Below the pieces are notes generated by a model. That model ran no database searches. It worked only from the letters and a program-made list of their open reading frames with translations, and was not told the DNA's origin. DNA of 64,000 nt, taken from assembly GCA_965222155.1 (NCBI GenBank), contig CBDCTH010000004.1, positions 384,001 through 448,000 of the forward strand, in the 5' to 3' direction. The position numbers and the translations under genes were made by a program. Below are positions 7,755-34,252 of the stretch, one piece after another (within the stretch, counting starts at the first letter, position 1; every line of letters starts with the position of its first letter). Source of the DNA: Gammaproteobacteria bacterium. Its GTDB lineage: Bacteria > Pseudomonadota > Gammaproteobacteria > Eutrophobiales > Eutrophobiaceae.

Positions 7755-8156
7755 GGCGCCTCCCCCCGTCGTCTTACCGGCGTCTCCCCCCGTCGCCTTA
7801 CCGGCGTCTCCCCCCGTCGCCTTACCGGCGTCTCCCCCCGTCGCCATGCCGGCGCCTCCCCCCGTCGCCATGCCGGCGCCTCCCCCCGTCGCCTTACCGG
7901 CGTCTCCCCCCGTCGCCATGCCGGCGCCTCCCCCCGTCGCCTTACCGGCGTCTCCCCCCGTCGCCTTACCGGCGTCTCCCCCCGTCGCCTTACCGGCGTC
8001 TCCCCCCGTCGCCTTACCGGCGCCTCCCCCCGTCGCCTTACCGGCGTCTCCCCCCGTCGCCTTACCGGCGCCTCCCCCCGTCGCCTTACCGGCGCCTCCC
8101 CCCGTCGCCTTACCGGCGACCGCTTTATCGTCATTCCGGCGAATGCCGGAATCCAG
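7755..8156. repeat. ~15 x 24-bp tandem repeat (ccggcgtctccccccgtcgcctta) ending at an intact REP palindrome
   Basis: Visible tandem units followed by gtcattccggcgaatgccggaatccag at ~8130-8156. Confidence 0.93.
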
Positions 8157-8354: not shown

Positions 8355-8936
8355 ATGACTGAATTATCATTCATCTTCCTGGCCGCCTGCCTGGCGAACA
8401 ACCTGGTGACCGACCACCTGCTCGGCGTGAGCCCCATGCTGGCGGCCGCGCAGAAAATCGACATTGCCGTGGATATGGCACTGGCCGTCACAGGCATCAC
8501 CACCCTGGTGGCGTTTATTTCCTGCCTGCTGGACACCTTGTTCATTACCCCCCTGCACCTGGAAAACTACCGGTTGATCATCATGGTCATGACCGTCGTG
8601 TGCGTCTGCCAGTTATCCCGGAAAATACCGGGCGGGTATTTCCCCCGACTGTTTGACCGGGACGGCCGGTTCTATCCGCTGTTGCTGATGAATTGCGCGT
8701 TACTGGGCGTCATACTGCTCAACGCGCAACAGGGGATCAGCCTGCTCGGCGCGCTGTTTTTCGGCGCCGGCGCCGGCCTGGGCTTCTCCCTGGTATTACT
8801 GAGCTTCAGCGCCATAAACCAGCGCCTGATCGTCACCGACCTACCCGCCCCATTCAAAGGCCTCCCCCTGCAAATGGTCACCCTGGGCATCATCTCCCTG
8901 GCCTTCTCAGGCTTCACCAGCCTGATAAAAACGTAA
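8355..8936 (+). CDS. rnfA: Rnf electron transport complex subunit A
   Basis: Hydrophobic protein with LANNLV..LLG, PLLLMNCALLG and DLPAPFKGLP motifs; first gene of the rnf cluster after metG. Confidence 0.88.
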   Translation: MTELSFIFLAACLANNLVTDHLLGVSPMLAAAQKIDIAVDMALAVTGITTLVAFISCLLDTLFITPLHLENYRLIIMVMTVVCVCQLSRKIPGGYFPRLFDRDGRFYPLLLMNCALLGVILLNAQQGISLLGALFFGAGAGLGFSLVLLSFSAINQRLIVTDLPAPFKGLPLQMVTLGIISLAFSGFTSLIKT

Positions 8937-8949
8937 TGCTGGAACTCTC

Positions 8950-9825
8950 CTAATTTGGGACACCCATAAATTGGCTCTCCTAATTTGGGACACCCATAAA
9001 TTAGAGGCACCTGATTTTTTCGATACAATTTATGGGTGTCCTGAATTAGGCATGTTGCCTGATACGGCAGTGAGATAATGTTGGAATTGATAATTGTTAC
9101 CCTGGCGCTTTATTTGCTGGCGCAGTCAGCGGCTGTGTTGTTATCCGCAGCAGGCGACACAAATACACGCGCCGGGGAAGAAACCATCAAGGCGCTGGAC
9201 GCGTTGCTGCCCCAGACCCAATGTGGCGATTGCGGCTATCCCGGATGCCTGCCTTATGCCAGGGCAATCGCTGAGCAGGACATCCCGCTAAACTTATGCC
9301 CCCCCGGCGGCGCAGTCACAGTCAGGAAACTGGAGAAATTACTCGGCATGACGTCTTACCGGCATATTGCCCCGGTGACGCCCGAAAATACCATTGCCCT
9401 GATAGACGAAGAAACCTGCATCGGCTGCGTAAAGTGCATTGACGCCTGCCCCGTCGATGCCATCGTCGGCAGCGCCAAACAACTGCACGCAGTCATCCCC
9501 GAATATTGCACAGGTTGCAAACTATGCCTGCCCCCCTGCCCGGTAGACTGCATCTCAATGATCCCCCATATTAATCCGGGACACTCATAAAAATCGGGAT
9601 ACTCCTGATTTGTAAGATGCCTAATCCAGGACATCCATAAAATCGGGATACGCCTGGTTTTTATACGATGCAATTTATGGGTGTCCTGAATTAGACTATT
9701 TTTACGTTCCATTATATGGGTGTCCTGAATTAGTCTTCCTGAATTAGCTCTGAATCAGCTTATGCAATTTATGGGTGTCCTGAATTAGTGTCCTGAATTA
9801 GTGTCCTGAATTAGCTTCTGAATTA
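8950..9825. repeat. GGACACCCAT/ATGGGTGTCC repeat clusters between rnfA-rnfB (8950-9047) and rnfB-rnfC (9573-9825)
   Basis: Multiple aatttgggacacccataaatt copies followed by inverted aatttatgggtgtcctgaatt copies. Confidence 0.9.
9078..9590 (+). CDS. rnfB: Rnf subunit B (ferredoxin-like)
   Basis: [19 protein letters not shown], two CxxCxxCxxxCP clusters. Confidence 0.93.
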
Positions 9826-13019: not shown

Positions 13020-13150
13020 AATTTGGGACACCCATAAATTTCGTGGTAAAAATTGGGGGAAATTTGGGACACCCATAAAATTTAGGAGTAAAAATCAGGG
13101 GGAAAATTTGGGACACCCATAAAATTTAGGGGTAAAAGTCAGGACACCCG
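13020..13150. repeat. Four direct GGACACCC repeats downstream of the RAYT-like gene
   Basis: atttgggacacccataaa x3 plus caggacacccgta, each carrying a similar short flank. Confidence 0.9.
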
Positions 13151-13341
13151 TAGTATTAAATCGAATGAACCACGCTTTCTATACATTGCGCGGGGATCTC
13201 TTCAGCGACATCAACTCCACGGTAGCTGTATTGCCGGCTGCGCCGGCCTTCAGTAGAGATAAACACAGTAGATGTTGTGCGCTGGTAAACCCCAGCCGGG
13301 CGGCGCGTGGGGTGTGGGGTCAGGCTTGACAGGGTTCAGGT

Positions 13342-14307
13342 TTAGTTCAGCGAGTAGCTGGCCTGCCAGAGCCAATGCTGGCCGATAGCCTGGCAGTATT
13401 TCTTTATGTGCGTGGCAGACCCCAGTGCCTTCTGATGGGAGAGTACAGGAGGCTTCATAGCTGTTTGCCAATGGGCCGGTGTTATGCTGAGTTGGTCAAT
13501 CAGAGGTGGAGCGTCTTCCGGTATGGCTCCTTGCTTATCCTCCCTGATGATTCGACCCGACCAATCCAGAAGCTGCAGATAGTCATCAAAGTAAAATGGA
13601 AGGTGGTAATAATGGTTCGTCACCGTCTCCGGTTTATCTGATTTGAATGGTAGCAGGTCAGAGCTATTCCCAGCCAGTCGGCGTTTGATGGAGGTGTACT
13701 CCGACCGCATTGGGTTGTGGCTGAGACCGGCTCGGACAGGGTTTAATTCCACATAGGCCAAACATTGCAGTAAAGCGGTTTCATCCAGTAATGCTTGCGA
13801 CAGGAAGCGTCCTTCCCAAAAGCGTCCTTTACAGCCATCCTCCACATTGGCCTTACGGGCGATACGTTCGTTCAAATACCCCATGAAGCGGCTGATGCTG
13901 ATCAGGATTTTGCGCATTCGGGCAATCTCCGTATCGACGATTTCCTTTTCCGCATCTGTTAACACATTCCCTGCTTTGAACCGTACCATAAGTGGACTGA
14001 GGCGATATAACTGCTGCCAGCGGGTAAGTATCGTCTCAGCAGAGAGGGATGCAGCCAGCTCCAGGTTGACTTTGACAATCACATGATAATGATTGGACAT
14101 GATGGCATAACCCACCACATCAACACAAAATGCCCGGGATTGCGCTAAAAGCTGTTGTTCCACCCATTCTCTACGGTGTTGGTAGCTTTTCCCGGACAAG
14201 GCGTCGAAGCCACATAGGAAAGCACGGCGAACACAACGGGAAATACAGTGGTAATAACAAGTTTCTGCAAGACAGATTTGCTGGCGCCGAGCAATGGTCA
14301 TGGTCAA
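13342..14307 (-). CDS. RAYT-like HUH (Y1) tyrosine transposase/endonuclease
   Basis: YYHCISRCVRRAFLCG, HUH motif MSNHYHV, GRFWEGRF, catalytic Tyr in YVELNPVRAG; intact 321 aa; repeat clusters on both sides. Confidence 0.9.
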   Translation of the reverse strand: MTMTIARRQQICLAETCYYHCISRCVRRAFLCGFDALSGKSYQHRREWVEQQLLAQSRAFCVDVVGYAIMSNHYHVIVKVNLELAASLSAETILTRWQQLYRLSPLMVRFKAGNVLTDAEKEIVDTEIARMRKILISISRFMGYLNERIARKANVEDGCKGRFWEGRFLSQALLDETALLQCLAYVELNPVRAGLSHNPMRSEYTSIKRRLAGNSSDLLPFKSDKPETVTNHYYHLPFYFDDYLQLLDWSGRIIREDKQGAIPEDAPPLIDQLSITPAHWQTAMKPPVLSHQKALGSATHIKKYCQAIGQHWLWQASYSLN

Positions 14308-14394: not shown

Positions 14395-14592
14395 AATTTA
14401 TGGGTGTCCTGGATTTTTCAGGGCAGGTAATTTGGGACACCCATAAATTTCGTGGGGAGGTAATTTGGGACACCCATAAATTTCGTGGGGAGTATTGGGA
14501 CATACATAAAATCAGTTTATGGGTGTCCCAAATTTGCTCCCAAATTTGTCTCTGGAATTTATGGGTGTCCTGAATTTATGTCCTGAATTTAT
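14395..14592. repeat. GGACACCCAT/ATGGGTGTCC cluster upstream of the RAYT-like gene
   Basis: Direct and inverted copies, including duplicated ggtaatttgggacacccataaatttcgtgggga. Confidence 0.9.
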
Positions 14593-16781: not shown

Positions 16782-18215
16782 TTACAATACAGGTGAATAA
16801 GCCGCACTATTCACAGGCGGTTGCACGGCTGTTTCCGGCGTTGTCTCCTCGTAGGTCAGGTGCATCAGCATGGCGTAGTACCTGCGGATGTTTTCCACGA
16901 ATTTGACCGGTTCTCTCCCCCTGGCGTGGCCGTGTTTTGTCTGCGAGTACCATTTGGATTGGTTCAACAGCGGCAGGGACTTTTTAACGGCGGCCCAGGA
17001 ATCAGGGTCGCCGCCGTTTTTCTGGGTTAGCACCCTGGCGTCTTCGAGATGGCCGTAGCCGACGTTATAGGAGGCAAGTGCAAACCAGGTGCGGTCCGGC
17101 TCGGCAATCCGGTCCGGCATCTTGTCTGCCAGGGTGGTCAGGTACTTGGCGCCGCCATGGATGCTCAGCACCGGGTCAAGGCGGTCGCTGATACCGATCT
17201 GCCGCGCCGTTTGTTTCGTCAGCATCATCAGCCCGCGTACGCCGGTGGGCGAGCGCGCCGAATTTTTCCAATGGGATTCCTGGTAGCTGATCGCGGCAAG
17301 CAGGCGCCAGTCAAAACCGAACTCGTTCCCGGCATTCATGAAATAAGGTTTCAACTCCGGCAGCAAGTCGTTGTAGCGGTCGATGAAACTGCGCGCCTCC
17401 ACATAATTTAATGAGTCCGCAAACGCATAAACCTGCTCGAGCAGGTCAGCCAGTTGACCCTTGCTCCTGATGTCATCCTGGAACTGCCTGATTGCCCTGA
17501 TGAGAGAATCATCATTCGGGGACTTACTGACAGCCCAGCCCAGGGGCTCAGGCGCGCTCAGGTCAAAGGCAACCCGAAGCTCCGGCAGGGAGATGCGCGC
17601 GTGGGCCACTTCGTTGGACCAGGCCACGGTGTAGAGGATTTCCCCGTTCTCTATCATCTCCAGCAGGTCGAGGTTGTCCTTGTCGTCGTACAGGACCAGG
17701 ATAAGGTCCGGGTGATGGGTTCGCAGCAGGTCAAGCTCCTCCGGGGTAAGGGCATTACGGCCCAGGTGAAGCCGGTGGGGCGCAATCTCAGCCAGCGAGG
17801 ATGGACGTATATAGCCGTAACGGTACACCACCTGCCGGGTCACCCATTGAAAACCGGGGCCGTACGCCAGGGGATCGTCCGGTTCGAAGGTCCTTGTCAA
17901 TCCGGCTGAGGCAACGTCCGCCTGTCCGGAGGCGAGCAGGTCGGTGATTTCCTCCCTGCCGTCAGCCTGGCTGAATTCGAAATCGACGCCCAGCCAGGCG
18001 GCGAACAGTTTGACCAGTTCGAATTCCAGACCGCGTCCGCCTTCCTCATCGTGCAGTTGATAGGTCGTCGGTCCAGCTACGGTGACGACGTTGACCACGC
18101 CCCGCTCCTGGATCTGCTCCAGCCGTGTTTTTTTCTCGGCACACCCCAGCATCAGCAGGTAGGCGGGCAGCACAAGCCCGATTAAAACCGGAACAAATTT
18201 CGCTGTCCTACCCAC
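16782..18215 (-). CDS. mltF: Membrane-bound lytic murein transglycosylase MltF
   Basis: Periplasmic binding-like N-domain plus SLT motifs AAISYQESHW, SPTGVRGLMMLT, ASYNVGYGH, ARGREP. Confidence 0.92.
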   Translation of the reverse strand: MGRTAKFVPVLIGLVLPAYLLMLGCAEKKTRLEQIQERGVVNVVTVAGPTTYQLHDEEGGRGLEFELVKLFAAWLGVDFEFSQADGREEITDLLASGQADVASAGLTRTFEPDDPLAYGPGFQWVTRQVVYRYGYIRPSSLAEIAPHRLHLGRNALTPEELDLLRTHHPDLILVLYDDKDNLDLLEMIENGEILYTVAWSNEVAHARISLPELRVAFDLSAPEPLGWAVSKSPNDDSLIRAIRQFQDDIRSKGQLADLLEQVYAFADSLNYVEARSFIDRYNDLLPELKPYFMNAGNEFGFDWRLLAAISYQESHWKNSARSPTGVRGLMMLTKQTARQIGISDRLDPVLSIHGGAKYLTTLADKMPDRIAEPDRTWFALASYNVGYGHLEDARVLTQKNGGDPDSWAAVKKSLPLLNQSKWYSQTKHGHARGREPVKFVENIRRYYAMLMHLTYEETTPETAVQPPVNSAAYSPVL

Positions 18216-19209
18216 TTTGCGCTAGAACCAGGGAGAAATAGTGGTTATCCGGCTCAAAATGACGGATGACGTTAAGTCCAAAGTCCTCCAGTAAGGTTTC
18301 CAGTTCATCGAAGCAGAACTTGTAGCTCAATTCAGTCAGTATCTTCTCGCCGCTTTCCAGCCGGATGCTCTCGTTGAGCTTGCCCAGCGTGATTTCCTGG
18401 CGCAGCCCGGATACGAGATACATCTCGATTCTGTTCAACTCATTATTATAGACAGCCAAATGAGCAAAATTATCCGCGCGGAAGTTCGCGTCCAGTTCGC
18501 GGTTCAACACCTGCAATACGTTCAGGTTGAACTGGGCGGTAATACCCTGGGCATCGTTATAGGCGGCATTCAGCACCGCAGTGTCTTTAATCCGGTCTGC
18601 CCCCAGCAGCAGAAAATCGCCCGGCTCCATGCGCCGCCGGATGTCACCGATGAAAGCGCGCACCTCCGGGGGGGTGAAATTACCGATGGTGCCGCCCAGG
18701 AACAGGTACATCCCGGCGCCCCGGTAATGCGGCAAATTCTTCAGGCCGGCATGATAGTCCCCCAGCAGCGGCCTGACGTCGAGCCACTTATAATCATGCT
18801 GCAGTTTGCCGGCTGCCTCCAGCAATACGGGTTCACAGATGTCAAACGGCGCATACACGCAGGTATGGCCCTGTTTTTCACAGGCATCAAACAGGTTAGT
18901 CGTTTTTTTCGAGCTGCCGCTGCCCAGCTCGATAAAGTAATCGGGACGAGCCAGCGCGATGATATCGTCACCGTACTGCCGTAACAGCGTATCCTCGGTA
19001 CGGGTCGGGTAATACTCGGGCGTTTCACATATCCGGCCGAACAACTCCGCCCCACGCGCATCATAAAAATACTTGGGAAGCAGGGAACGAGGCCGCTCAA
19101 TCAGACCCGCACGAGCATCCTCCTCCAAGCCAGCAACATGCTTGGCCGGCGTGATCGTAATGCACTGAACAGCACCCGAATATCGATTAAGCTCGGTAAT
19201 GGTATCCAC
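18208..19209 (-). CDS. egtD: L-histidine N-alpha-methyltransferase EgtD
   Basis: PKYFYDARG, PEYYPTRTE, IELGSGSS, FLGGTIGNF, AAYND..G.TA.FNLN, IEMYL. Start probably GTG 19209. Confidence 0.92.
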   Translation of the reverse strand: MDTITELNRYSGAVQCITITPAKHVAGLEEDARAGLIERPRSLLPKYFYDARGAELFGRICETPEYYPTRTEDTLLRQYGDDIIALARPDYFIELGSGSSKKTTNLFDACEKQGHTCVYAPFDICEPVLLEAAGKLQHDYKWLDVRPLLGDYHAGLKNLPHYRGAGMYLFLGGTIGNFTPPEVRAFIGDIRRRMEPGDFLLLGADRIKDTAVLNAAYNDAQGITAQFNLNVLQVLNRELDANFRADNFAHLAVYNNELNRIEMYLVSGLRQEITLGKLNESIRLESGEKILTELSYKFCFDELETLLEDFGLNVIRHFEPDNHYFSLVLAQSG

Positions 19210-19269
19210 TATGTCAAGAATATCCCGAAACAGGTTCGCTACCCGTAATTGTACCCGAGTTGCAGAATA

Positions 19270-19942
19270 AATTTGGGACACCCATAAATTCATTTTATGG
19301 GTGTCCTGAATTAATGGGTGTCCTGAATTAATGGGTGTCCTGAATTAATGGGTGTCCTGAATTAATGGGTGTCCTGAATTAATGGGTGTCCTGAATTAAT
19401 GGGTGTCCTGAATTAATGGGTGTCCTGAATTAATGGGTGTCCTGAATTAATGGGTGTCCTGAATTAATGGGTGTCCTGAATTAATGGGTGTCCTGAATTA
19501 ATGGGTGTCCTGAATTAATGGGTGTCCTGAATTAATGGGTGTCCTGAATTAATGGGTGTCCTGAATTAATGGGTGTCCTGAATTAAATTAATGCCTTGTT
19601 GAACATTACAAACTCATGGGTGTCCTGAATTAATGGGTGGAATTATGGGTGTCCTGAATTAATGGGTGTCCTGAATTAATGGGTGTCCTGAATTAATGGG
19701 TGTCCTGAATTAATGGGTGTCCTGAATTAATGGGTGTCCTGAATTAATGGGTGTCCTGAATTAATGGGTGTCCTGAATTAATGGGTGTCCTGAATTAATG
19801 GGTGTCCTGAATTAATGGGTGTCCTGAATTAATGGGTGTCCTGAATTAATGGGTGTCCTGAATTAATGGGTGTCCTGAATTAATGGGTGTCCTGAATTAA
19901 TGGGTGTCCTGAATTAATGCCTTGTTGAACATTACAAACTCA
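19270..19942. repeat. Perfect 17-bp satellite ATGGGTGTCCTGAATTA (17 + 1 + 16 copies) with a duplicated 26-bp flank
   Basis: Units at 19297-19585, 19616-19632 and 19645-19916; atgccttgttgaacattacaaactca at 19591-19616 and 19917-19942; inverted arm at 19275-19290. Confidence 0.97.
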
Positions 19943-19982: not shown

Positions 19983-20285
19983 ATGAGGATTATCGCGCTC
20001 CCGACGCTCAAGAAGTTCTGGGAGCAGAGCCCTGCATATACGGATGCGGCTGAGCCGGTCCGGGCCTGGTATCGGCATGCATTACGAGCTGACTGGGCCT
20101 CACCCGCTGATGTCAAACAGGATTTTGGCAATGCCAGTATTCTGAAGGACGGACGAGTGGTGTTTAATATAGCCGGTAACAAGTATCGGCTGGTTGTCTG
20201 GATTAATTACGCTTATCGAGTGGTTTACATACGGTTTATCGGAACACACGCCCAATATGATCAAATCGACGCACAAGTTATTTAG
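19983..20285 (+). CDS. higB: HigB-family toxin
   Basis: MRIIA..TLKKFW, WASPADVKQDFGNASIL, RVVFNIAGNKYRLV, RFIGTHAQYD; TTGAAC-17-TATAAT promoter upstream. Confidence 0.9.
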   Translation: MRIIALPTLKKFWEQSPAYTDAAEPVRAWYRHALRADWASPADVKQDFGNASILKDGRVVFNIAGNKYRLVVWINYAYRVVYIRFIGTHAQYDQIDAQVI

Positions 20286-20303
20286 CCTCTGGAGGAACAA
20301 GTG

Positions 20304-20684
20304 ATGGACGTTAAACCCATCAAAACCGATGCCGACTATCAAGCGGCGCTGCAAGAGATAGCAACGCTGATGACGGCGCGATTGGATTCACCGGAGGGTG
20401 AAAGGCTGGATGTATTGACGACACTGGTTGAGGCTTATGAACGGAAGCATTATCCGCTTGAATTACCCGACCCGGTGGCAGCCATCAAGTTTGAAATGGA
20501 ACAAAAGGGTCTAACGGCCAAAGATCTGGAACCGATGATTGGCAGGAGAAACCGGGTCTATGAAGTTTTGAATCGCAAACGTTCACTTACCCTTAAAATG
20601 ATTTGGCGCCTGCATGAGCAGCTAGGCATCCCTGCCGAGTCATTAATCAAACAGGCCCCTGGTCCGGATAACCAGGCCGCATAA
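20304..20684 (+). CDS. higA: HigA-family HTH antitoxin
   Basis: KPIKT.ADYQAAL, LVEAYE..HYP, C-terminal HTH (VYEVLNRKRSLT); directly follows higB. Confidence 0.9.
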   Translation: MDVKPIKTDADYQAALQEIATLMTARLDSPEGERLDVLTTLVEAYERKHYPLELPDPVAAIKFEMEQKGLTAKDLEPMIGRRNRVYEVLNRKRSLTLKMIWRLHEQLGIPAESLIKQAPGPDNQAA

Positions 20685-20718: not shown

Positions 20719-22029
20719 ATGACGAAGCTAACAAATTATGTGTTTGACTTGATGGCCACACCGGTCTGCCGCCAGTGTCTTTTGCCGTTCCTCCTGCCCG
20801 GCATTGCCCCATCCATCGCTTTGGGCAACGAAGCATCAGGCACACAAGTTCCCGACCCTGAAGCGCCCGGGCTAACCTGGTCCATCGCCCGCTACGAAAC
20901 GCGTATTGCCGAACTGGAGGCCGCCGAAGGTCCCCATGCAGCCGAGCTGGTTGAAGCCCACTCCAGCCTGGGCATGCTCTACCAGCGGGCCGGAGACCAC
21001 GGCCAGGCGATTGCAGTATTGCGGGACGCCCTGCAGTCGGCGCGCGTCAACGATGGGCTGCACAATATGAGCCAGGTCGCCATCCTGGAGGCCATCATCG
21101 ACAGCCAGGTCGCCCTGAGCGCCAGGGATGATCTGCGGCGCAACTATGAATACCTGTTCTGGCTGTACCAGCGCAACTACGGCGATTACAGCGCCGGCCT
21201 GGTGCCGGTGATCAAGAGGGTGGGGCAGTGGTACTTCGACCTCTACAACTTCAGCCCCCCGAACACCACGGTGGAACCCCTGATCGCGGCGGACGCCCTG
21301 TATGCCAAGGCGCTGAAAATCCTCCCGGGGGATGCGCCGTCCCGGGACCGGGCAGACATCTTATATAAGGTGGCCGTCATCAACCACCACGTCGCTGAGG
21401 ACGTGCAGGCCCCGATGCTGTCCCACCGGGAAATACGGGAAGCCATGATCCCCCACGGCCGGGGCAGCCCCTACCTCAACGAAACGGCCGTGCGCCAGTA
21501 CTACGCCGACCAGAGCTTCCACAAGGGCAAGCGCTCGCTGAAGCGCATCATCGAGACCTATGAGAAAACCCTGCCCGACGGCATCATGGACTACACCCGG
21601 GCGCTGGTATTCATGGGCGACTGGCTGACCGTGCAACGCCGGGTCCTGGAGGGCGCCCGCCTGTACCAGCGCGCCTGGGCCGCCCTGAAAGAACACAACG
21701 CCGACCCGGCGCAGGTGGATGAACTGTTCGGCGAACCGCAACCCATAGAGCAACTCCCCATCCCGGGCGAGCCGGAGCCGCAAGTCGGCGCCGACAACTA
21801 CTACGTGGATGCCCTGCTGGACGTACCCGAGTCAGGCTGGCCCACCAACATCAGGATACAGGCCATCCACCCGCCCGGCGAAACCACCCTGATCCAGCGC
21901 GCCGAACGCGGTATCGCCGCCACCCGCTACCGCCCCCGCTACTGCAACGGCCAACCGGTCGTCACCAGCGACGTCCCCCTGCGCTTCATCTTCAAGCACA
22001 AAGACCAACCCGGCTGGCTGCATTATTAA
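20719..22029 (+). CDS. Secreted TPR-like protein with TonB C-terminal-like domain (copy 1)
   Basis: Signal-like N-terminus, helical repeats, C-terminal VDALLDVPESG..NIRI...RYRPRY.NGQPV motif. Confidence 0.65.
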   Translation: MTKLTNYVFDLMATPVCRQCLLPFLLPGIAPSIALGNEASGTQVPDPEAPGLTWSIARYETRIAELEAAEGPHAAELVEAHSSLGMLYQRAGDHGQAIAVLRDALQSARVNDGLHNMSQVAILEAIIDSQVALSARDDLRRNYEYLFWLYQRNYGDYSAGLVPVIKRVGQWYFDLYNFSPPNTTVEPLIAADALYAKALKILPGDAPSRDRADILYKVAVINHHVAEDVQAPMLSHREIREAMIPHGRGSPYLNETAVRQYYADQSFHKGKRSLKRIIETYEKTLPDGIMDYTRALVFMGDWLTVQRRVLEGARLYQRAWAALKEHNADPAQVDELFGEPQPIEQLPIPGEPEPQVGADNYYVDALLDVPESGWPTNIRIQAIHPPGETTLIQRAERGIAATRYRPRYCNGQPVVTSDVPLRFIFKHKDQPGWLHY

Positions 22030-22100
22030 ACCTCTAAATTCGGGACACCCATAAATTGATTTTGTGGGTGTCCCGAATTAATGGGTGTCCCAAATTAATG

Positions 22101-22635
22101 CGTGAGCAGGAAAGCGGGCAGGACCAGGCCGGTTAAAATGGCAACACGTTGCACGGCATTAACCACTTTGCGCCAGAACCAGGGAGAAATAGCGGTTGTC
22201 CGGCTCAAAATGACGGATGACGTCAAGTCCGAATTCGTCCAGCAGTGTCTCCAATTCATCATGGTCAAACTTGTAACTCAATTCGGTCAGTATCTTCTCA
22301 CCGCGTGCCAGCCGGATGCTCAAATCCAGCCTGCCCAGAGTAATCTGCTGGTCCAGTCCGGATACCAGGTACATCTCAATCCTGTGCAACTCATTATTAT
22401 AGAAAGCCAAATGCGCGAAATTATCCGCGCGGAAGGCCGCGTCCAGTTCCCGGTTGAGCACCCGCAACACGTTCAGGTTGAACTCGGCGGTAATCCTCTG
22501 GGCATCGTTATAGGCGGCATGCAGCACGTCATTGTCTTTTATCCGGTCTGCCCCCAGCAGCAGAAAATCGCCCGGCTGCATGCGCCGGCGGATGTCGCCG
22601 ATGAAGGCGCGTACCTCGGGGGGGGGGGGGGGGTA
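22101..22635 (-). pseudogene. Diverged fragment of the egtD 3' half plus mltF 5' end, bounded by GGACACCC repeats
   Basis: Homologous to 18150-18675; translation matches the EgtD C-terminus, then MVNAVQRVAILTGLVLPAFLL versus MltF MGRTAKFVPVLIGLVLPAYLL. Confidence 0.88.
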
Positions 22636-22882
22636 AATCCGGGATAAATTCAGGACACCCATAAAATGGGGCAAATTCGGGACATCCATAAAATAGGGGT
22701 CAATCCAGGGGGATAAATTTGGGAGGGTAAATTTAGGAGGTAAATTTAGGACACCCATAAAATGGGCAAGAATAAATCCTGGACACCCACGAAATATTTT
22801 ATGGATGTCCTGAATCTATGGGTGTCCTAAATTTGCGTCCTGAATTGCGACCTATAATATCCAGGGGATACTGACAGATTTG

Positions 22883-23140
22883 TTACTCGTAATGATATCT
22901 GAGTTGAGCGATATACAAGTTATTACCGGCAACCTTGTAGACAATTCTATGCTCGTCATTGATCCGTCTGGACCAATAGCCCGTCAGGTTATGTCTCAGT
23001 GCTTCGGGTTTACCAATTCCTGCAAAGGGATCGCGCTGGATAGCCTTGATCAATGTGTTTATTCGCTTCAGCGTTGCTTTGTCCGTTTTCTGCCAGTAAA
23101 GGTAATTCTCCCATGCCGTGGAAGAAAACGTGAGTTTCAT
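22883..23140 (-). CDS. yoeB: Txe/YoeB toxin
   Basis: AWENYLYWQ, DPFAGIGKPEAL, WSRRINDEHRIVY, RYHY. Confidence 0.95.
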   Translation of the reverse strand: MKLTFSSTAWENYLYWQKTDKATLKRINTLIKAIQRDPFAGIGKPEALRHNLTGYWSRRINDEHRIVYKVAGNNLYIAQLRYHYE

Positions 23141-23388
23141 TCAATAAGTTCCCGTTCCGTGCCCTTTCCGGCTTCCAGTTCGGCGATGGATTCCAGCAGG
23201 CGCCTTGAATTGGCCGGGGCTCGCAGCAGATAGGCGGTTTCTTCCAAGGCCTGATAATCATCCAGGGACAGCATGACCACGGCCGATTCCCGCTTACGGG
23301 TAATAATGATGGGGGTATGGTCGTTGCATACTTTTTCCATCGTCTTCGCCAGGTTCGCCCGGGCAGCGGTGTAACTAATAGCATCCAT
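23137..23388 (-). CDS. yefM: YefM antitoxin
   Basis: ISYTAARANLA, PIIITR, LEETAYLLRAPAN. Confidence 0.95.
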   Translation of the reverse strand: MDAISYTAARANLAKTMEKVCNDHTPIIITRKRESAVVMLSLDDYQALEETAYLLRAPANSRRLLESIAELEAGKGTERELIE

Positions 23389-23686
23389 ATCAGCCTCCGG
23401 TTTCTATTGTACAGGATAATGTACGTATATCCTACACGCAAAAGCAAATGATGATCAACCCGTTACAAATTCAGGACACCCATAAAATGGGACAAATCCG
23501 GGACACCCACAAAATATTTTGTAGATACCCTTAATTTATGGGTGTCCTGAATTAGCTTCCTGAATTAGCTGTCTTTCGCATTGACAGGAGCCTGAACAGA
23601 ATTAATACTGTCGATAACATTCGATATCCTTGACAACAGGTTTCGGGTTGGAGAATGGTTAATGCAATGAGGCACAAAACAGGTAA

Positions 23687-23920
23687 ATGGATTTTGAGAT
23701 TATCAGCATTATTCGTCATTCTGAAACCATCGCACAAGGCTTCAGGATTCGCGAGTTGAAACGCCTGCAGAAGATATATGGATCAGGCCGGTGGCGAAAA
23801 CGTAAAGGTGAAACTACTGTCAGGCTGGCTGATGGAACCATATTGGGTGCAGAAGTTCACTGGTACGAAGCTCACGGTATAGGAAAACGTGAATTCAAGA
23901 TTAAACGGTATCTGAAATAA
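23687..23920 (+). CDS. Conserved hypothetical basic protein (possible toxin)
   Basis: 77 aa, AEVHWYEAHGIGK motif; coupled to the next small gene. Confidence 0.7.
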   Translation: MDFEIISIIRHSETIAQGFRIRELKRLQKIYGSGRWRKRKGETTVRLADGTILGAEVHWYEAHGIGKREFKIKRYLK

Positions 23921-23925
23921 CACTC

Positions 23926-24135
23926 ATGGCAAATACAAAATTTGCGGTCTGTATTGATAACTCAGGTTACGAGGCATCTCTGGAGCGTCGAAAATTATAT
24001 CAACTGATCCCGGATGATGAGGCGGCAAAACATCATCAGTTGCGGGTCACGGATGAGTCAGGGGAAGATTATCTCTATCCGGAATCCTGTTTTGTGACTG
24101 CGGCCTTGCCCGAAGCAAAGAAAGCGGCAACATAA
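23926..24135 (+). CDS. Conserved hypothetical acidic protein (possible antitoxin/immunity)
   Basis: 69 aa, CIDNSGYEASLE, RVTDESGEDYLYP. Confidence 0.7.
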   Translation: MANTKFAVCIDNSGYEASLERRKLYQLIPDDEAAKHHQLRVTDESGEDYLYPESCFVTAALPEAKKAAT

Positions 24136-24310
24136 TATAACCAAATCACCTCTGGTTATACCGGACAACCCCGTCATACCGAAAGAATCAGCCCGGTATA
24201 AATCCGGGACACCCACGAAATATTTTGTGGATGTCCTGAATTTATGGATGTCCTGAATTTGCCACTGGCATGGTAGTATCTTATATATTAAAAAGTATGC
24301 ATCCGCCCTG

Positions 24311-25606
24311 ATGACCGAACCCGTCTGCCGATATTTTTTGCCATTGCTTGTTATCGGCATTGTTCCATCCTTCTCTCCGGCCAACGAGCCGGCAGACATC
24401 CACCGCCCTGACTCTACTGTCGCTACACAAGCCCCCTCCGATCCCGGGCTGACCCGGTCCATCGCAAGCTATGAAACCCGCATTGCCGAACTGGAGGCTG
24501 CCGGAGGACCTCATGCAGCCGAGCTCGTCGAAGCCCACTCCAGCCTGGGCATGCTCTACCAGCGGGCCGGAGACCACGGCCAGGCGATTGCAGTATTGCG
24601 GGACGCCCTGCAGTCGGCGCGCGTCAACGATGGGCTGCACAGCATGAGCCAGGTCGCCATCCTGGAGGCCATCATCGACAGCCAGGTTGCCCTGGGCGCC
24701 AGGGATGATCTGCGGCGCAACTATGAATACCTGTTCTGGCTGTACCAGCGCAATTACGGCGATCACAGCGCCGGCCTGGTGCCGGTGATCAAGAGGGTGG
24801 GCCAGTGGTACTTCGACCTCTACAACTTCAGCCCCCCGAACACCACGGTGGAACCCCTGATCGCGGCGGACGACCTGTATGCCAAAGCGCTGAAAATCCT
24901 CCCGGAGGATGCGCCGCCCCGGGACCGGGCAGACATCTTATATAAGGTGGCCGTCATCAACCACCACGTCGCTGAGGACGTGCAGGCCCCGATGCTGTCC
25001 CACCGGGAAATACGGGAAGCCATGATCCCCCACGGCCGGAGCAGCCCCTACCTCAACGAAACGGCCGTGCGCCAGTACTACGCCGACCAGAGCTTCCACA
25101 AGGGCAAGCGCTCGCTGAAGCGCATCATCGAGACCTATGAGAAAACCCTGCCCGACGGCATCATGGACTACACCCGGGCGCTGGTATTCATGGGCGACTG
25201 GCTGACCGTGCAACGCCGGGTCCTGGAGGGCGCCCGCCTGTACCAGCGCGCCTGGGCCGCCCTGAAAGAACACGACGCCGACCTGGCGCTGGTGGATGAG
25301 TTATTCGGCGAACCGCAACCCATAGAGCAACTCCCCATCCCGGGCGAGCCGGAGCCGCAAGTCGGCGCCGACAACTACTACGTGGATGCCCTGCTGGACG
25401 TACCCGAGTCAGGCTGGCCCACCAACATCAGGATACAGGCCATCCACCCGCCCGAACAGACCACCCTGGTCCGCCGCGCCGAGCGCGGCATCGCCGCCAC
25501 CCGCTACCGCCCCCGCTACCGCAACGGCCAACCGGTCGCCAGCACCGACGTCCCCCTGCGCTTCATCTTCAAGCACAAAGACCAACCCGGCTGGCTGCAT
25601 TATTAA
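24311..25606 (+). CDS. Secreted TPR-like protein with TonB C-terminal-like domain (copy 2)
   Basis: Near-identical to 20719-22029 after the first ~50 aa. Confidence 0.65.
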   Translation: MTEPVCRYFLPLLVIGIVPSFSPANEPADIHRPDSTVATQAPSDPGLTRSIASYETRIAELEAAGGPHAAELVEAHSSLGMLYQRAGDHGQAIAVLRDALQSARVNDGLHSMSQVAILEAIIDSQVALGARDDLRRNYEYLFWLYQRNYGDHSAGLVPVIKRVGQWYFDLYNFSPPNTTVEPLIAADDLYAKALKILPEDAPPRDRADILYKVAVINHHVAEDVQAPMLSHREIREAMIPHGRSSPYLNETAVRQYYADQSFHKGKRSLKRIIETYEKTLPDGIMDYTRALVFMGDWLTVQRRVLEGARLYQRAWAALKEHDADLALVDELFGEPQPIEQLPIPGEPEPQVGADNYYVDALLDVPESGWPTNIRIQAIHPPEQTTLVRRAERGIAATRYRPRYRNGQPVASTDVPLRFIFKHKDQPGWLHY

Positions 25607-25822
25607 ACCTCTAAATTCGGGACACCCATAAATTGGGTTTGGGAGGGATGAATTTGGGACACCCATGAATTGAATTTATGGGTGTCCTGAAATTGGAAAT
25701 TAATGGGTGTCCTGAATTACTCTGCCATTTGACATCATAATTCACTATGTAACTTACAAAATACATAATATTTTCACTTTTTGACTTCATTTTTCCAGTA
25801 AACCCCGTATAATGACCATAAA

Positions 25823-26998
25823 ATGAATTCAAAACCCCCGTTCATGTTCGAAAGACTCATTAAAAAACCGCTGGAATCACGCAAAAGTTTTTTTCTCTTC
25901 GGCCCAAGAGGGACCGGCAAGACCACCTGGTTGAAACACCATCTCCCCGATGCGCTGTTTATTAACCTGCTCCAATCTGAATTCTACAATCGCCTGACTG
26001 CGAACCCCGGATACCTCAGAGAGTTCATTCCCCCCGACTACACAAAGCGGGTTATTATTGACGAGATACAGCGTATCCCTGCGCTGCTGAACGAAGTACA
26101 TGACCTGATCGAATCAAGAAAACTGGACTTTGTCCTGACCGGTTCAAGCGCCAGGGCGTTAAGACGGAAAGGGGTCAACCTGTTAGCCGGCCGTGCCCTG
26201 ACGTATGCCATGCACCCGTTGACGGTGACTGAGCAGCAGGACGCATTCGACCTGCGCAAATCCATACGGCTCGGCCATTTACCCGCCCGGTTCAACGAGA
26301 ACGACCCTGGCAAATATCTCAAGGACTACGTGCAGACATACCTCAGGGAAGAAGTCATGCAGGAGGGCCTGACCCGCAACATCGGCCACTTTTCCCGATT
26401 TCTGGAAGTAGCCAGCTTCTCCCAGGGAACAACGGTCAATATCAGCGCCGTAGCACGCGAGGCACAGGTCGAGCGACCGGTTGCGGAGAACTATTTCTCC
26501 ATATTGGAAGACCTGCTCATAGCCGTGCGCCTGCCGGTATTCAGCCGCAAGGCAAAAAGAAAACTCATCACACACAATAAATTTTATTTTTTCGATGTCG
26601 GCGTGTATCGAGCGATACGGCCCGTCGGACCCCTGGACTCCGATGCAGAACTGGACGGTCCTGCATTGGAAACACTGGTGCTCCAGGAACTCAGGGCGCT
26701 GAACGATTATTTGGAATGCGATTACCGGATATACTTCTGGCGCACACGAACCAACCTGGAAATCGATTTTGTCCTGTACGGGCCGCGCGGCCTGCTGGCA
26801 ATCGAGATTAAACGCTCGGCGCATGTCCAATTCAAACAGACACGATCGTTGCGGGAATTCAAAAAAGATTATCCCCCCGCCAGGTGCTACGTGTTCTACG
26901 GTGGAACCACTCCCCGATACATGGAAGACGTCACCGTGCTGCCCATCGAATACGCACTGAAGAATCTAGACCGGATGTTAACGGACAACCTGAACTGA
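25823..26998 (+). CDS. AAA+ ATPase (AAA_14 + DUF4143 type)
   Basis: GPRGTGKT Walker A, IIDEIQ Walker B, LTGSS, KFYFFDVG, EIDFV..AIEIK nuclease-like tail. Confidence 0.85.
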   Translation: MNSKPPFMFERLIKKPLESRKSFFLFGPRGTGKTTWLKHHLPDALFINLLQSEFYNRLTANPGYLREFIPPDYTKRVIIDEIQRIPALLNEVHDLIESRKLDFVLTGSSARALRRKGVNLLAGRALTYAMHPLTVTEQQDAFDLRKSIRLGHLPARFNENDPGKYLKDYVQTYLREEVMQEGLTRNIGHFSRFLEVASFSQGTTVNISAVAREAQVERPVAENYFSILEDLLIAVRLPVFSRKAKRKLITHNKFYFFDVGVYRAIRPVGPLDSDAELDGPALETLVLQELRALNDYLECDYRIYFWRTRTNLEIDFVLYGPRGLLAIEIKRSAHVQFKQTRSLREFKKDYPPARCYVFYGGTTPRYMEDVTVLPIEYALKNLDRMLTDNLN

Positions 26999-27721: not shown

Positions 27722-28060
27722 CAAATCCGGGACCAAATCCGGGACACCCATAAAATCGTTTTGTGGGTGTCCCGAATTAATGGGTGTCCTGAATTAATGG
27801 GTGTCCTGAATTAATGGGTGTCCTGAATTAATGGGTGTCCTAATGGGTGTCCTGAATTAATGTCCTGAATTAATGGGTGTCCCGAATTAATGGGTGTCCT
27901 GAATTAATGGGTGTGAATTAATGGGTGTCCCGAATTAATGGGTGTCCCGAATTAATGGGTGTCCCGAATGAATTAATGGGTGTCCCGAATTAATGGGTGT
28001 CCCGAATTAATGGGTGTCCCGAATTAAGGGTGTCCCGAATTAATGGGTGTCCCGAATTAG
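27722..28060. repeat. Second ATGGGTGTCC(T/C)GAATTA satellite with truncated units
   Basis: About 17 tandem full or partial units after one inverted GGACACCCAT arm. Confidence 0.93.
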
Positions 28061-28074
28061 CTTTCCCAAGTCGC

Positions 28075-28608
28075 TCAGCCAAACACCCGCGGCACAAAAC
28101 CCACGTCGTTGGTGATACTTGCGCTGCTGCCGGTGGCCCGGATCACATACAGGCCCTGCCGTTGCGCATACACCTGTACGGACGCATCCGCCTTTAGGTA
28201 TGCCACCGCACCGTAGATCTTCTTTCCTTTGTAGACTGGCGCATAATCCGTGAACTTGCCCAGCTTCTCAAGAAACTGCGCCACGTCCTCTGCGCGCAGC
28301 GTGGTCTTTACCTCCACTACCACCACTTCTTCACCATTCTCAGCCAGGATATCAAACTCAAAATGCTCGCCATTACGCCGGCCATTCAATCGGGTATGCG
28401 TGGACCGTACGGTTATCCCTCGGGCGTGCAACAAGGGAACCAGGTCACCTTCCACCAGGCTCTCCATCAGTGCGCCCCACTGGCTGGTAAATAACCCTTC
28501 CAGCTTTTTCATCCGCCGGTTGGCCTCCTTGTGCTCATTGGACACCTCGCGCAGGATGGCCCGGATTTCTTCGAAGGTGGCGGGTTCACGTTGCAGTTCT
28601 TTTTCCAT
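28075..28608 (-). CDS. Coiled-coil + PD-(D/E)XK-like nuclease-fold protein (DUF3782-like)
   Basis: WGALME, EFDILA, VVVEVKTTL, IYGAVA, GLYVIR. Confidence 0.7.
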   Translation of the reverse strand: MEKELQREPATFEEIRAILREVSNEHKEANRRMKKLEGLFTSQWGALMESLVEGDLVPLLHARGITVRSTHTRLNGRRNGEHFEFDILAENGEEVVVVEVKTTLRAEDVAQFLEKLGKFTDYAPVYKGKKIYGAVAYLKADASVQVYAQRQGLYVIRATGSSASITNDVGFVPRVFG

Positions 28609-30373: not shown

Positions 30374-30479
30374 TGTGCGCAGTGATAATTTTTCTGTAAA
30401 AATGTGTAATAATGCGCAATAATGCGATAAACCAAAAGAATTCGTTTACTTCTATCTGATAGCACAGGAGAAAAAAGTT

Positions 30480-33400
30480 ATGCCAATTTCAATTGAGAAA
30501 TCACCGCAAGATGCGCCTGCAGCTCTCGACACCGGGTTCAGCTTCGCACCGCATTCTGATGGTTCATTCGATGAGAAAAATAACACGTTTATGGGCACAC
30601 TTAACGACTCGTCCGATGTAGACTGGATCGTAATTGATTTGCGAGCGGGGAAAGAGTACACAATCGGCGTGAAAGGCGATAAGGGTGGGGTGAATGACAC
30701 CATCCTGAAACTCCTCGATTCAAAGGGTGGCATTGTTGAAGATAATGACGACGTTGACGGCGCCAAGGGGGAGCTCAACTCGGAAGTGATGTTCACCCCG
30801 AAAGAGGACGCCAAATACTACATCAGCGTCAGCGCCTATACGGGTAACCCGCAAGCGAAAATGGACAATAAGGGCGCTTACACGGTTACGGTGACAGAGG
30901 AGGACGTAGGTCCTGCGGATATTCACGGTACTAAAACGCAGACAAACTCACCGGCACCGACGCAGGAGAGGAGATCGATGGGAAGGAAGGTAACGACGAA
31001 TTGAAGGGCGGAAGCGGTAACGACAACTTGATAGGCGGCGACGGTAATGACTTGCTCGTAGGCGGTTCGGGCGCCGATACGCTCAGTGGCGGCGCTGGCG
31101 ATGACACGATATCTTACGAGGATTCAATAAAGGGCGTTACCATAAACCTGCTCACCGACACGGCCAAGGGTGGCGACGCCGATGGAGATACGATTGTTGA
31201 TAAGAAGGGTGATCAGATCGAGAACGTTCAGGGTTCCATGTATGATGACCGGCTCACCGGTAATGATGTGGGCAACAAACTCTGGGGCTTGGGTGGCAAT
31301 GATGAACTGAACGGTGGCAGGGGCGCAGACACCTTGTCTGGCGGCCCCGGTGACGATGCTCTGGACGGTGGAGATGACAATGACACCCTGGAAGGCGGCG
31401 CCGGCGCGGACGAACTGACCGGCGGCAAGGGTGACAATACCGCATCCTACGCTAGTTCGGAGATGGGCGTGACGGTACGTCTTCATGCTTCCAAGGCCAT
31501 GGGCGGCGACGCCGAAGGCGATACCTTTGGCGGGATGGTAACTGTGAAGTATACGGATGAGGATGGCGATCCTCAAGGGGAAAACCTCCCTGATATAATT
31601 AAGCTTACAGGTTCTGCTCACGACGATATACTGGCGGGCGACTTCAGGGATAACGTAATCGAGGGCGGCGCCGGCAACGATAGGCTGTACGGCGGCCCGG
31701 GTGGTGGTGATGGCAAAGGTGACGACACTAACAAGGACACGCTGCATGGTCAGGCTGGCGACGATAAGCTGTACGGTGGTGCCGGCGATGACAAGCTGTA
31801 CGGTGGTGCCGGCAGTGACGTGCTCTGGGGCGGCCCGGGTGAAGACACCTACGAGGGCGGCGCTGGTGATGATACCATTCACGCCGATAAGGATGACGTG
31901 ATGATTGATGGTGATGGTGATGGTGATGATGAAGACGACGCAACTGAGAATGGTAAAAACGACACCGTATCTTATGCGAAGTTAGATGATGGAGTTACCA
32001 GGATCCTTGGAGGAACTGGGGACGGCGTAACGATTAGTAACGTTGAGAACATTATCGGGTCTCAGGGCGACGACAACCTGACCGGTGATGATAGAAATAA
32101 CGTCATTGAAGGTGGCGAGGGTGGTGATACTCTTATAGGTGGAGGAGGAGAGGACACCTTATCCTATGCCAGTTCGGATGACTGGGTCAGGGTATCGCTT
32201 GCCACTGAAACTGCCTCCAGGGGGCACGCTTCAGGTGATGAGTTCCAAAACTTCGCAAATATTACCGGGTCTGGTCACGATGACGACCTGACCGGCAACG
32301 ACGAAGACAATGTGCTTAAGGGCGGTGACGGTGATGATGATCTGGTTGGTAACGAGGGCGCTGATACGCTGGAAGGCGGTGCTGGAGCCGATGAGTTGGA
32401 CGGCGGTATTCCTAATGCTACTAGTCAAGAAGGCGCTGGCGAGGAGGCAGATCTCGACGATACCTTGTCCTATGCAAGTTCGAACGCTGGCGTCACGGTA
32501 CACCTGGCTGGTGCCAGGGTTTCCGGCGGTCATGCCACAGGTGATACTATTGCGACTGTTGAAACGGACCATGATAAGGACGCAAAGACAGACAAAATTG
32601 ACGTCTCTACCTTCGAGAACGCTACCGGATCTATGTATAATGACACATTAACAGGCGATTATATGGACAACAAGCTCACCGGCAACGCCGGTGATGATAC
32701 CCTCAAGGGCGGTGCCGGAGCGGATACGCTTAACGGCGGCCCCGGGGCGGACACGCTTGATGGTGGATCGTCGTTGGAGGAAGGTGGTGATACCCCTAAC
32801 AACGCAACTGATGATAAGCAACACGTGGATATCGCATCCTACGCCGGAGCAACGGCAGGCGTTACAGTGGACTTGAGCACCGGCAGAGGGACGGCGGGCG
32901 ACGCCAAAGGCGATACGCTTGACGATATTGAGAAAGTCATGGGATCTGCAAATGATGATACGTTCATTGCCAGTGCAGGGGCTGACGACATTGATGGCAG
33001 CGCCCACGATGGGGACGACGAGGGAGACGAAGGTGGTGACGGTGATACCGTATCCTATGAAGCATCAGGAGCAGGCGTTGCTGTGACTTTGATGGGTGAT
33101 AACAATGCCACTATCCCCTCCAAGATTGGTACTGGTGATGCTGCTGTCGAAAATGGCGCCGCTGGCGATGTGCTTTCCAATATCGAGAACCTTACCGGGT
33201 CTGCTCAAGGTGATTCTCTGACTGGAGACGGAAATGACAATACCCTCAAGGGCGGTGATGGCGGTGACACACTGATGGGCTTAGCTGGTAATGACATGCT
33301 GATGGGCGACGCCGGCGATGACACACTGAATGGCGGCGCCGGCGATGACACACTGAATGGCGGCGCCGGCGATGACACACTGAATGGCGGTGATGGCAAA

Positions 33401-33745
33401 AACACACTGAATGGCGGTGCCGGCGATGACGTACTGAATGGCAATGCCGGCGGCGTTGACACCTTCGTATTCAGCCCCGATGATGGGGATTGGGATGATG
33501 TCATTGTTGACTTCGATGAAGGAACCGATAAAATTGACCTGTCAGCTTTCAGAAACCTTAATGCTGATGCTCTGAAGGATCTCATAGAAGTACGAGGGAG
33601 CAGCGTCATAATCGATCTGACTGGTCTTGGCGGAGGGAAAATTGCAATACAAGATGATGGCGCTGGTAACGCTAGGGCTTTGGAGGGAGTTCTAGAAAGC
33701 ACCCTAACAGACGACAATTCGGCAAATGATGTTTTCATCCTCTGA
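30480..33745 (+). pseudogene. RTX Ca-binding repeat surface protein, copy 1 (PPC-like N-domain), split by a -1 frameshift near 30935
   Basis: GGxGxD nonapeptides; ORFs 30480-31004 and 31001-33745 join if one base is added at ACT-AAAA-CGCA, by comparison with copy 2. Confidence 0.85.
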
Positions 33746-33991
33746 TCAACCTGAGCATCAAAACCAGCTTCCTGATTTCACGGAAGTAAACGATCACAGG
33801 GGCGGTTTAGCCGGGTTTCCCGTTTAAATCAGCCCCTGTTTTATTAAAAGGGGTCGGTGACAAATGAGAACAAAGTGATCGGGGTCAGGTCGCACAATGC
33901 GCAGTGTTAAAACCCGATTGACAACGAGCCTCAGCCAAGCTACACTGCCTGAACGATTAACTGGAAGTTGTAAGAAAAGGAGGTACACCCG

Positions 33992-34252
33992 ATGATAAAT
34001 CAAGAAGCCCAACCGAATGGCAGCATGGAGGCCTTCGCCAGCGCCTTTTCCAACCTGGTAAAAGACGCCACCTCACACCTGGCCACCAAGGACGACCTCG
34101 CCAACATGGCCGCCAACATGGCCACCAAGGACGATATCAATAAACTTTCCGACAGGATAGACAAGGTAGAGCAAACGGTAGCGGAAGGCTACAAGCGCAT
34201 TTATAGCTGGAGAGACGAGATGTATAAGACGTTTGTCCGAAAAGCAGAGTAA
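33992..34252 (+). CDS. Small ATKDD-repeat coiled-coil protein
   Basis: Strong RBS aggagg; HLATKDDLANMAANMATKDDI; identical copy at 44842-45102. Confidence 0.75.
   Translation: MINQEAQPNGSMEAFASAFSNLVKDATSHLATKDDLANMAANMATKDDINKLSDRIDKVEQTVAEGYKRIYSWRDEMYKTFVRKAE

Follow-up and report, generated by a model that had tools for sequence, protein, structure and literature searches.

Why does a gammaproteobacterial chromosome carry, 4 kb from a resident egtD-mltF gene pair, a second and truncated copy of the junction between these two genes, and from where could such a copy have come? It lies in a stretch of 64,000 nucleotides (G000:C4:384001-448000, the window in what follows) of a metagenome-type assembly. 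A first-pass annotation, which had only the letters to go by, proposed that arbitrary chromosomal DNA of a related lineage had been trapped there between repeats. I took up this proposal with homology searches, trees and comparisons of the locus across the genus.

The truncated copy and its contents

Within the whole 4.55-Mb assembly, BLASTN aligns positions 22105-22625 with 18154-18674 at 84.07% identity over 521 bp without a gap (E 1e-161), and the fragment as query finds two places only, itself and the resident egtD-mltF pair. The diverged copy that had been noticed by eye is therefore real, although the figure first given for its identity (roughly 80%) was slightly low; on 522 aligned columns the value is 83.7%. 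The fragment holds EgtD codons ~203-361, the stop and the first 22 codons of MltF, with no indel. On the minus strand the 153 aligned EgtD codons and the stop form an unbroken frame without an internal stop, with 130/153 residues identical to the resident EgtD and 138/153 to the EgtD of the related genome G016. The stop of the egtD relic overlaps the GTG start of the mltF relic, which itself ends two codons short of the lipobox cysteine. Thus the gene boundary is indeed crossed with the reading frame kept, just as the first-pass annotation had it.

The fragment corresponds to positions 152-303 of the 304 positions of the Pfam family Methyltransf_33 (E 1e-47), as against positions 2-303 in the resident EgtD. 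Measured against a full-length EgtD (TIGR03438 / PF10017), which includes an N-terminal SAM-binding half, it has the C-terminal part only, and for this retained part the E-value and the 138/153 residues in common with G016 establish homology to EgtD. Since the SAM-binding half is absent, the fragment is predicted to be non-functional, with no methyltransferase possible. A promoter scan of 21800-23000 returned no sigma-70-like site, and no Rfam family matched in the window.

The frame of the relic also stays open through the C16 run and the adjoining repeats to an ATG, which gives an ORF of 199 aa (22159-22758, minus strand). Gene callers may label this ORF a short EgtD, and a one-base change in the homopolymer would shift its frame. 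It should be annotated as a pseudogene and not as a second EgtD. The features of the locus are collected in Table 1.

Table 1. Features in and around the egtD-TPR region; positions are those of the window.
Feature	Position	Strand	Evidence
RAYT-like (REP-associated tyrosine transposase-like) gene	13342-14307	-	NF047646 41.7 bits (cut-off 80); Pfam Y1_Tnp E 5e-4
Resident mltF, 477 aa	16782-18215	-	NF008112 509.7 bits (cut-off 354); 95.5% to sister species G019
Resident egtD, 361 aa, holding the segment copied (18154-18674)	18208-19293	-	TIGR03438 339 bits (cut-off 290.9); 95.2% to G019
37 tandem copies of the 17-nt REP unit ATGGGTGTCCTGAATTA, array directly upstream of egtD	19297-19919	.	TRF: period 17, 37.2 copies, 93% matches
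HigB/HigA-like toxin-antitoxin pair	19983-20684	+	Pfam HigB_toxin E 2e-32, HTH_3
TPR-like gene copy 1, 436 aa	20719-22029	+	weak TPR hits (Pfam)
REPIN-like hairpin (19-bp stem) and one further unit, left junction	22035-22100	.	DNA fold -22.1 kcal/mol, z -8.2
mltF relic, GTG start and 22 signal-peptide codons, foreign type	22101-22166	-	homology to G014-G016 clade extends as far as 22100-22101
egtD relic, C-terminal ~155 codons and stop, foreign type, frame open	22159-22633	-	Pfam, identity, tree
G16 homopolymer, right junction	22618-22633	.	sequence
REP units and nested REPIN-like hairpin	22634-22850	.	fold of 22740-22850: -21.3 kcal/mol, z -5.3
YoeB/YefM toxin-antitoxin pair, resident (G019-like) type	22883-23388	-	Pfam YoeB_toxin E 4e-38, PhdYeFM E 2e-26
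REPIN-like hairpin	23457-23570	.	fold -23.7 kcal/mol, z -6.8
Two small ORFs, 77 and 69 aa	23687-24135	+	no Pfam or NCBIfam match
REPIN and remnant of the ancestral spacer between egtD and TPR gene, ahead of TPR copy 2	24199-24310	.	aligns with spacer of G022, G015, G016
TPR-like gene copy 2, 431 aa, 5' end foreign type like the fragment	24311-25606	+	tree of 5' 209 columns
AAA_14/DUF4143 ATPase gene	25823-26998	+	Pfam

Relatives of the fragment and of the resident gene

I searched the fragment against 40 related genomes. Of the 22 other genomes in the genus, 20 gave a match (one of them, in G012, of 30 bp only), as did one genome outside it, and in each relative the match is to a full-length, syntenic egtD-mltF pair. 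Over 522 columns the fragment is 90.8% identical to G016, 90.2% to G014, 90.0% to G022 and 89.3% to G015, with matches spanning 524 bp in these four, and 84.1% identical to G019. At identical sites the resident gene reaches 82-83% against the clade of G014, G015, G016 and G022, as compared with 89-91% for the fragment.

The resident egtD-mltF pair is instead 95.4% identical to that of G019 over 2454 bp (95-97% overall range for the resident gene). Three 12-kb chunks of contig C12 are 91-97% identical to G019 and 74-90% to the other clade, and the 18-kb left flank of the window 88-96% and 80-90%, respectively; the background identity to the G014/G015/G016/G022 clade is mostly 78-87%. A fourth chunk (C4:100001-112000) found a long syntenic match neither in G019 nor in the other clade. 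This background agrees with G019 being the sister species of this organism and, since the resident locus is in line with it, vertical descent of the resident locus is indicated. The fragment, at 89-91%, is closer to the other clade than the genome at large (74-90%).

A maximum-likelihood tree was built from 522 columns and 22 rows, namely 20 loci of 19 relatives (G018 twice), the resident gene and the fragment; G005, G010 and G012 offered no usable match and were omitted. In this tree the fragment is sister to G014/G015/G016/G022 (support 100/100) and the resident gene groups with G019 (99/97). Forcing the fragment, the resident gene and G019 into one clade costs 56.9 units of log-likelihood and is rejected (AU p 5e-5). 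The tree, the AU test and a fragment that is 89-91% identical to the other clade but 84% identical to its own genome's gene mean that it did not arise by local duplication of the resident gene. This closer match to another species is what the first-pass annotation had offered as a check of its idea of a related lineage, and on the origin of the DNA that idea holds. A foreign source in a different species of the same uncultured genus is thus well supported by the sequence comparisons.

No closer donor was found among the 22 other genomes of the genus, the best match being 91%. Species-representative genomes held nothing closer to the fragment, and a protein query of JGI metagenome contigs gave, among the 80 loci kept, a single close match (90% aa), whose sequence is the same as the G016 contig. 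When 22000-24300 was compared with plasmids, similarity (65-71%) was confined to the YoeB/YefM module. The donor was probably an unsampled lineage, sister to the G014/G015/G016/G022 clade, a placement that forms part of the account I consider probable below.

Two side observations concern the same genomes. G000:C12:2003036-2006597 is 90% identical to G015 as compared with ~79% to G016, well above the clade background, and may be another exchange between lineages. G018 has two inverted egtD-mltF copies (C2:4915147-4918588, 1104729-1108170) that are 99.9% identical over 3.4 kb. One of them lies at the very end of the contig, and the doubling may be an assembly foldback; the pair is uninformative.

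Had the fragment decayed neutrally after a local duplication, its dN/dS should approach 1, the outcome that the first-pass annotation had set against its own reading. By the Nei-Gojobori method fragment and resident gene give 0.20, fragment and clade members 0.16-0.21; ortholog pairs span 0.16-0.47, a range that includes these values. The substitutions by codon position 3:1:2 are 37:18:11. The fragment departs from every one of the four clade members at 34 sites, 26 of them in egtD (16 synonymous, 10 not). Of the changes polarised to its own branch, 14 in all, eight are synonymous and six non-synonymous, and six or fewer would be expected under neutrality with a probability of 0.007 (binomial). 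The low dN/dS and the few non-synonymous changes imply that the fragment diverged for the most part while it was still a working gene in its donor, and that its time as a pseudogene has been short.

A further reading is an old local duplication that preceded the split of the clades, with one paralogue retained by the G014-G016 clade, the other by this genome and G019, and a scrap of the first left in this genome. Such hidden paralogy would likewise place the fragment with the G014-G016 clade. However, the path length from the fragment to the clade is 0.11-0.12, as against 0.23 for the resident gene at the same sites, and a decaying pseudogene should be farther from the clade than the mostly 78-87% of the background, not nearer at 89-91%. 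Nor does G019 retain any trace of a second copy (one match only), and I regard this explanation as barely credible.

Could the fragment instead be a chimera of assembly or binning, in which reads of a second related organism were joined at the repeat arrays? The metagenome-type assembly with its estimated contamination of 7.28%, the repeat-rich region and the homopolymer at one joint would all suit such an error. A join of this kind needs shared sequence, however, and the fragment breaks off within genes that are whole in each of the 20 aligned relatives, so that some real molecule must contain the truncated piece. Furthermore, a second full egtD is absent from the genome (two matches in all), the flanks run on as resident-type or mosaic sequence in one contig of 622 kb, and the G16 tract is no one-off artefact in an assembly with about 20 poly-G/C tracts. 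A chimera is very unlikely on these grounds.

Repeats, joints and the neighbouring TPR genes

Both ends of the fragment lie at motif clusters, as first noted by eye: units of the GGACACCCAT type occupy 22043-22090 on the left and begin at 22653 on the right. The unit is ~22 nt long with the consensus TAATTCAGGACACCCATAAATT, and its 10-nt core has 128 matches in the window where 5.0 are expected. Of 224 exact cores genome-wide, contig C4 has 154, which fall almost entirely at 370-460 kb. The units fill most intergenic gaps of the region, including those between rnf genes and at fabA/ispG, and therefore lying between repeats is the default state for any segment here. Inverted pairs form hairpins with 19-bp stems (z -5.3 to -8.2), and head-to-tail arrays with a 17-nt period reach 37 copies (19297-19919) and 18 copies (27764-28059). 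The family belongs to the genus, with 102-211 copies in eight of its genomes and at most 10 outside it.

I read these repeats as REP/REPIN-like elements, as they are short, palindromic, extragenic units of high copy number that occur as inverted-pair hairpins, although long head-to-tail arrays are unusual for REP elements. Similar arrays are found at the G019 locus (L026) at 7815-8065 and 8850-9084. A RAYT-like gene encoding 321 aa has repeat units on both sides (13026-13151 and 14400-14570) and is single-copy, apart from a weak match of 77 aa elsewhere in the genome. Its translation contains what I take to be the HYH and Y..NP motifs, and its scores fall below the cut-offs (NF047646, 41.7 against 80; Y1_Tnp, 20.7 against 23). 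Set beside the known REP/REPIN-RAYT systems (PMC3116915, PMC3337134, PMC5581495), the locus is alike in its short extragenic units, often in inverted pairs that form long hairpins, in its hundreds of copies confined to one genus, and in a unit-flanked, single-copy candidate gene of the IS200-like Y1 type. It differs in its long head-to-tail 17-nt arrays, in the concentration of units in ~90 kb of one contig, and in a RAYT-like protein of 321 aa below the curated thresholds.

At the left junction the sequence reads ...AAATTAAT up to the joint and GCGTGAGC beyond it. There GCGTGACC loosely resembles the repeat core GGGTGTCC, with G-GTG matching at 6/10 positions. At the site of the right junction the fragment has G16, the resident gene G7+TGAAATT and the nearest relatives G6+AGTGAAATT, and the G-run+GAAATT loosely resembles G-run+TAAAT, with AAAT shared after the G-run. 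The microhomology is short at 4-6 nt per joint, and chance could account for such similarity. The right cut thus does fall at a G-run (22618-22633), as the first-pass annotation observed, but its likeness to a flank of the repeats holds only loosely: a G-run followed by TAAAT stands upstream of only 14/158 non-array units genome-wide and so is no regular flank.

Poly-G/C tracts of 12-27 nt number about 20 in this genome, for example at C12:1208189 (C27), C12:1836123 (G26) and C10:86262 (G21), and no A/T run exceeds 10 nt, so that expansion of G-runs seems to be a property of the organism. Some of the tracts have conserved flanks (…cgttatctcatgt G(n) tgaaggaggatggg…), and the tracts could be contingency loci or belong to a repeat element.

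Could the repeats themselves have brought the fragment in? REP/REPIN-like units and the RAYT-like HUH transposase might have excised or bracketed a donor segment and carried it here as a repeat-bounded cassette, which would supply a mechanism for the first-pass proposal. The fragment adjoins units at both ends, both cut sites are loosely unit-like, a unit-flanked RAYT-like gene lies 8 kb away, the region is a string of modules with repeats between them, and one copy of the HigB/HigA-like pair in G016 is bounded by units exactly where the homology ends. However, of six toxin-antitoxin copies in G014 and G016, three have no unit within the fetched 4-5 kb and only one has units on both sides, so repeat-bounded mobility of these modules is inconsistent and I have rejected it. 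In addition, repeats interrupt egtD or mltF in none (0/20) of the aligned relatives' loci, and the RAYT-like protein is below both curated cut-offs. Random capture does not predict homology to the adjacent locus and collinearity with a foreign-type TPR copy, and capture by repeats is an unlikely source of the fragment. A bolder form of the idea, in which hairpin repeats and the RAYT-like transposase make up a capture-and-shuttle system with the egtD-mltF piece as one cargo, I find quite unlikely. Units would insert at unit-like sites in genes, and the DNA between two units would become a mobilisable single-strand cassette able to pass between genomes of the genus; if true, toxin-antitoxin modules and gene scraps would come to stand in arrays with repeats between them.

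Two known classes of system were considered and rejected. A diversity-generating retroelement, which would confine differences to adenines of its template, does not suit the divergence, as all 12 substitution types occur, and no RT domain was found among the 58 ORFs scanned. Integron cassette arrays string together small modules, many being toxin-antitoxin pairs and some duplicated, with a structured repeat between one and the next. The locus resembles them in all of these respects but differs in having no IntI next to the array, in repeats that also lie between core genes, and in modules that point in both directions. Among the same 58 ORFs the only tyrosine recombinase (49090-50073) scores 49.9 bits against a cut-off of 220 with the XerA/integron-integrase model, and no GTTRRRY core site was seen by eye in the window repeats that were read.

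What, then, does the order of genes say? For seven relatives the retrieved locus extends past egtD (G001, G013, G014, G015, G016, G019 and G022), and in all seven the order is mltF (-), egtD (-), repeats, one TPR-like gene (+) and repeats. This genome has two TPR copies where each of the seven has one, divergent from egtD, and the fragment sits between the two in the ancestral orientation relative to copy 2. The copies are 96% alike over 1199 bp (20866-22064 and 24443-25641), their first ~225 columns 66-78%. Copy 2 keeps the ancestral egtD-TPR spacer, and the region upstream of it is of the foreign type. In trees restricted to the seven relatives with retrieved TPR loci, the 5' 209 columns of copy 2 fall with G016/G022/G015 (98/97 support), with which they have a 21-nt insertion in common. 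Over their middle 670 columns the two genes agree at 98%, and at the 3' end each of them falls with G019. Copy 2 therefore shifts in type along its length, from a foreign 5' end to a G019-like 3' end, and the 98%-alike middle blurs the crossover. Copy 1 is 93-97% identical to G019 at its 3' end, and its 5' end is unlike that of any sampled genome. Along the unit, identity to G014 is 90.2% in the fragment, 90.2% in TPR copy 2 and 87.9% in the region of the AAA gene. The AAA_14/DUF4143 gene has its nearest copy (88-89%) after the TPR gene of G014, which is the syntenic place, and it was not found at the G019 locus.

The fragment therefore corresponds to the adjoining locus and stands in its genus-wide order with TPR copy 2, which points to out-of-register recombination of a homologous segment from outside and not to random capture. 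The part of the first-pass annotation that spoke of arbitrary DNA taken up regardless of gene boundaries finds no support here, since the fragment is of the very locus found 4 kb away and is collinear with the foreign-type TPR copy.

The modules around the fragment have histories of their own. The HigB/HigA-like pair finds its nearest DNA, at 85%, at unlinked sites in G016 and G014, with no full copy at the G019 locus. The YoeB/YefM module is 92.9% identical to that of G019 over 581 bp, and in G019 the module lies a few kb away.

Several other features of the region and the genome deserve mention. A 3.85-kb duplicate occurs in inverted orientation at 30420-34215 and 45216-48992 (86.8% identity) and holds RTX-repeat (HemolysinCabind) genes of 914 and 1080 aa; the two copies bracket ~11 kb with a DDE_3 transposase, repeat units and small-ORF families. 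At 28075-28608 (minus strand) lies a gene for a 177-aa protein with a weak Hjc/nuclease-like match and a large paralogous family (~75% DNA identity), which is found in more than 20 places in this genome, for example C12:933916-941276, and in tandem runs here and in G014. An element of ~206 bp (37100-37307) has more than 25 copies at 95-99.5% on contigs C12 and C4 and looks like a MITE. Long tandem repeats, in-frame or intergenic, occupy 2342-3780, 7755-8118 and 55935-56350; a 42-nt unit is repeated 34 times inside an ORF of 1280 aa, and arrays of 24-nt and 25-nt units at two distant sites are ~75% alike.

A probable recombination account of the locus

The copy is real and foreign, its divergence built up under purifying selection, and it lies collinear with a TPR gene whose 5' end is of the foreign type. 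From these observations I infer how the DNA came in, in what order the events took place, and what part microhomology played at the joints. The fragment is probably, though with a good deal of room for doubt, a xenologous relic of an mltF-egtD-spacer-TPR(-AAA) locus, integrated one register rightward of the resident unit and afterwards truncated. An unsampled species of the genus would have supplied the DNA that entered the cell, a segment that began within mltF, took in egtD and the TPR gene and reached the AAA gene at least. Its right part would have recombined with the resident locus in homologous sequence, and its left end, in the signal-peptide codons of mltF, would have been attached, by an illegitimate joint, to the hairpin repeat that follows the resident TPR gene. 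The event might have been homology-facilitated illegitimate recombination (HFIR), or an equivalent with a tandem-duplication joint, and would have left the resident unit followed by the foreign unit. The redundant foreign egtD would then have lost its N-terminal half at the G-run, and the gap would now hold the repeat units, the resident-type YoeB/YefM pair and the two small ORFs. The topology of the joint would be that of a tandem duplication with a unit of ~2.6 kb, formed either in the recipient or in the donor and then imported via the TPR gene.

Some findings sit uneasily with this account. The right-hand crossover cannot be placed because the TPR copies are mosaic, 98% alike in mid-gene and G019-like at their 3' ends; gene conversion has overwritten part of their history. 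The model leaves the 5' end of TPR copy 1 unexplained. At least one further rearrangement is needed, as the YoeB/YefM module is of the resident type (93% to G019), and the microhomology at the joints is short and a donor above 91% was not found.

HFIR is described for naturally transformable bacteria and for conjugation in E. coli (PMC3240628), and it is invoked for the orphan gene arrays that sequential displacement of T6SS effector genes leaves in Vibrio cholerae (PMC5361080). Like such scars, the locus has DNA of a related lineage added beside resident DNA with remnants of a redundant gene, and it would have one side in homologous sequence and the other joint at a site lacking real homology. 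Unlike them, it has neither crossover mapped, the TPR genes having since been homogenised, and its inserted DNA is an allele of the neighbouring locus and so mimics a tandem duplication.

The mechanism looks like an ordinary recombination scar in a hypervariable region rich in repeats and toxin-antitoxin modules, with no new DNA-capture system and no new mechanism to be read from it. Mis-registered integration of a homologous foreign segment can evidently mimic a tandem duplication. The stretch beside egtD is a recombination hot spot, with its toxin-antitoxin modules, hairpin repeats and mosaic genes, and the fragment within it is clean, datable evidence that species of an uncultured gammaproteobacterial genus have exchanged DNA.
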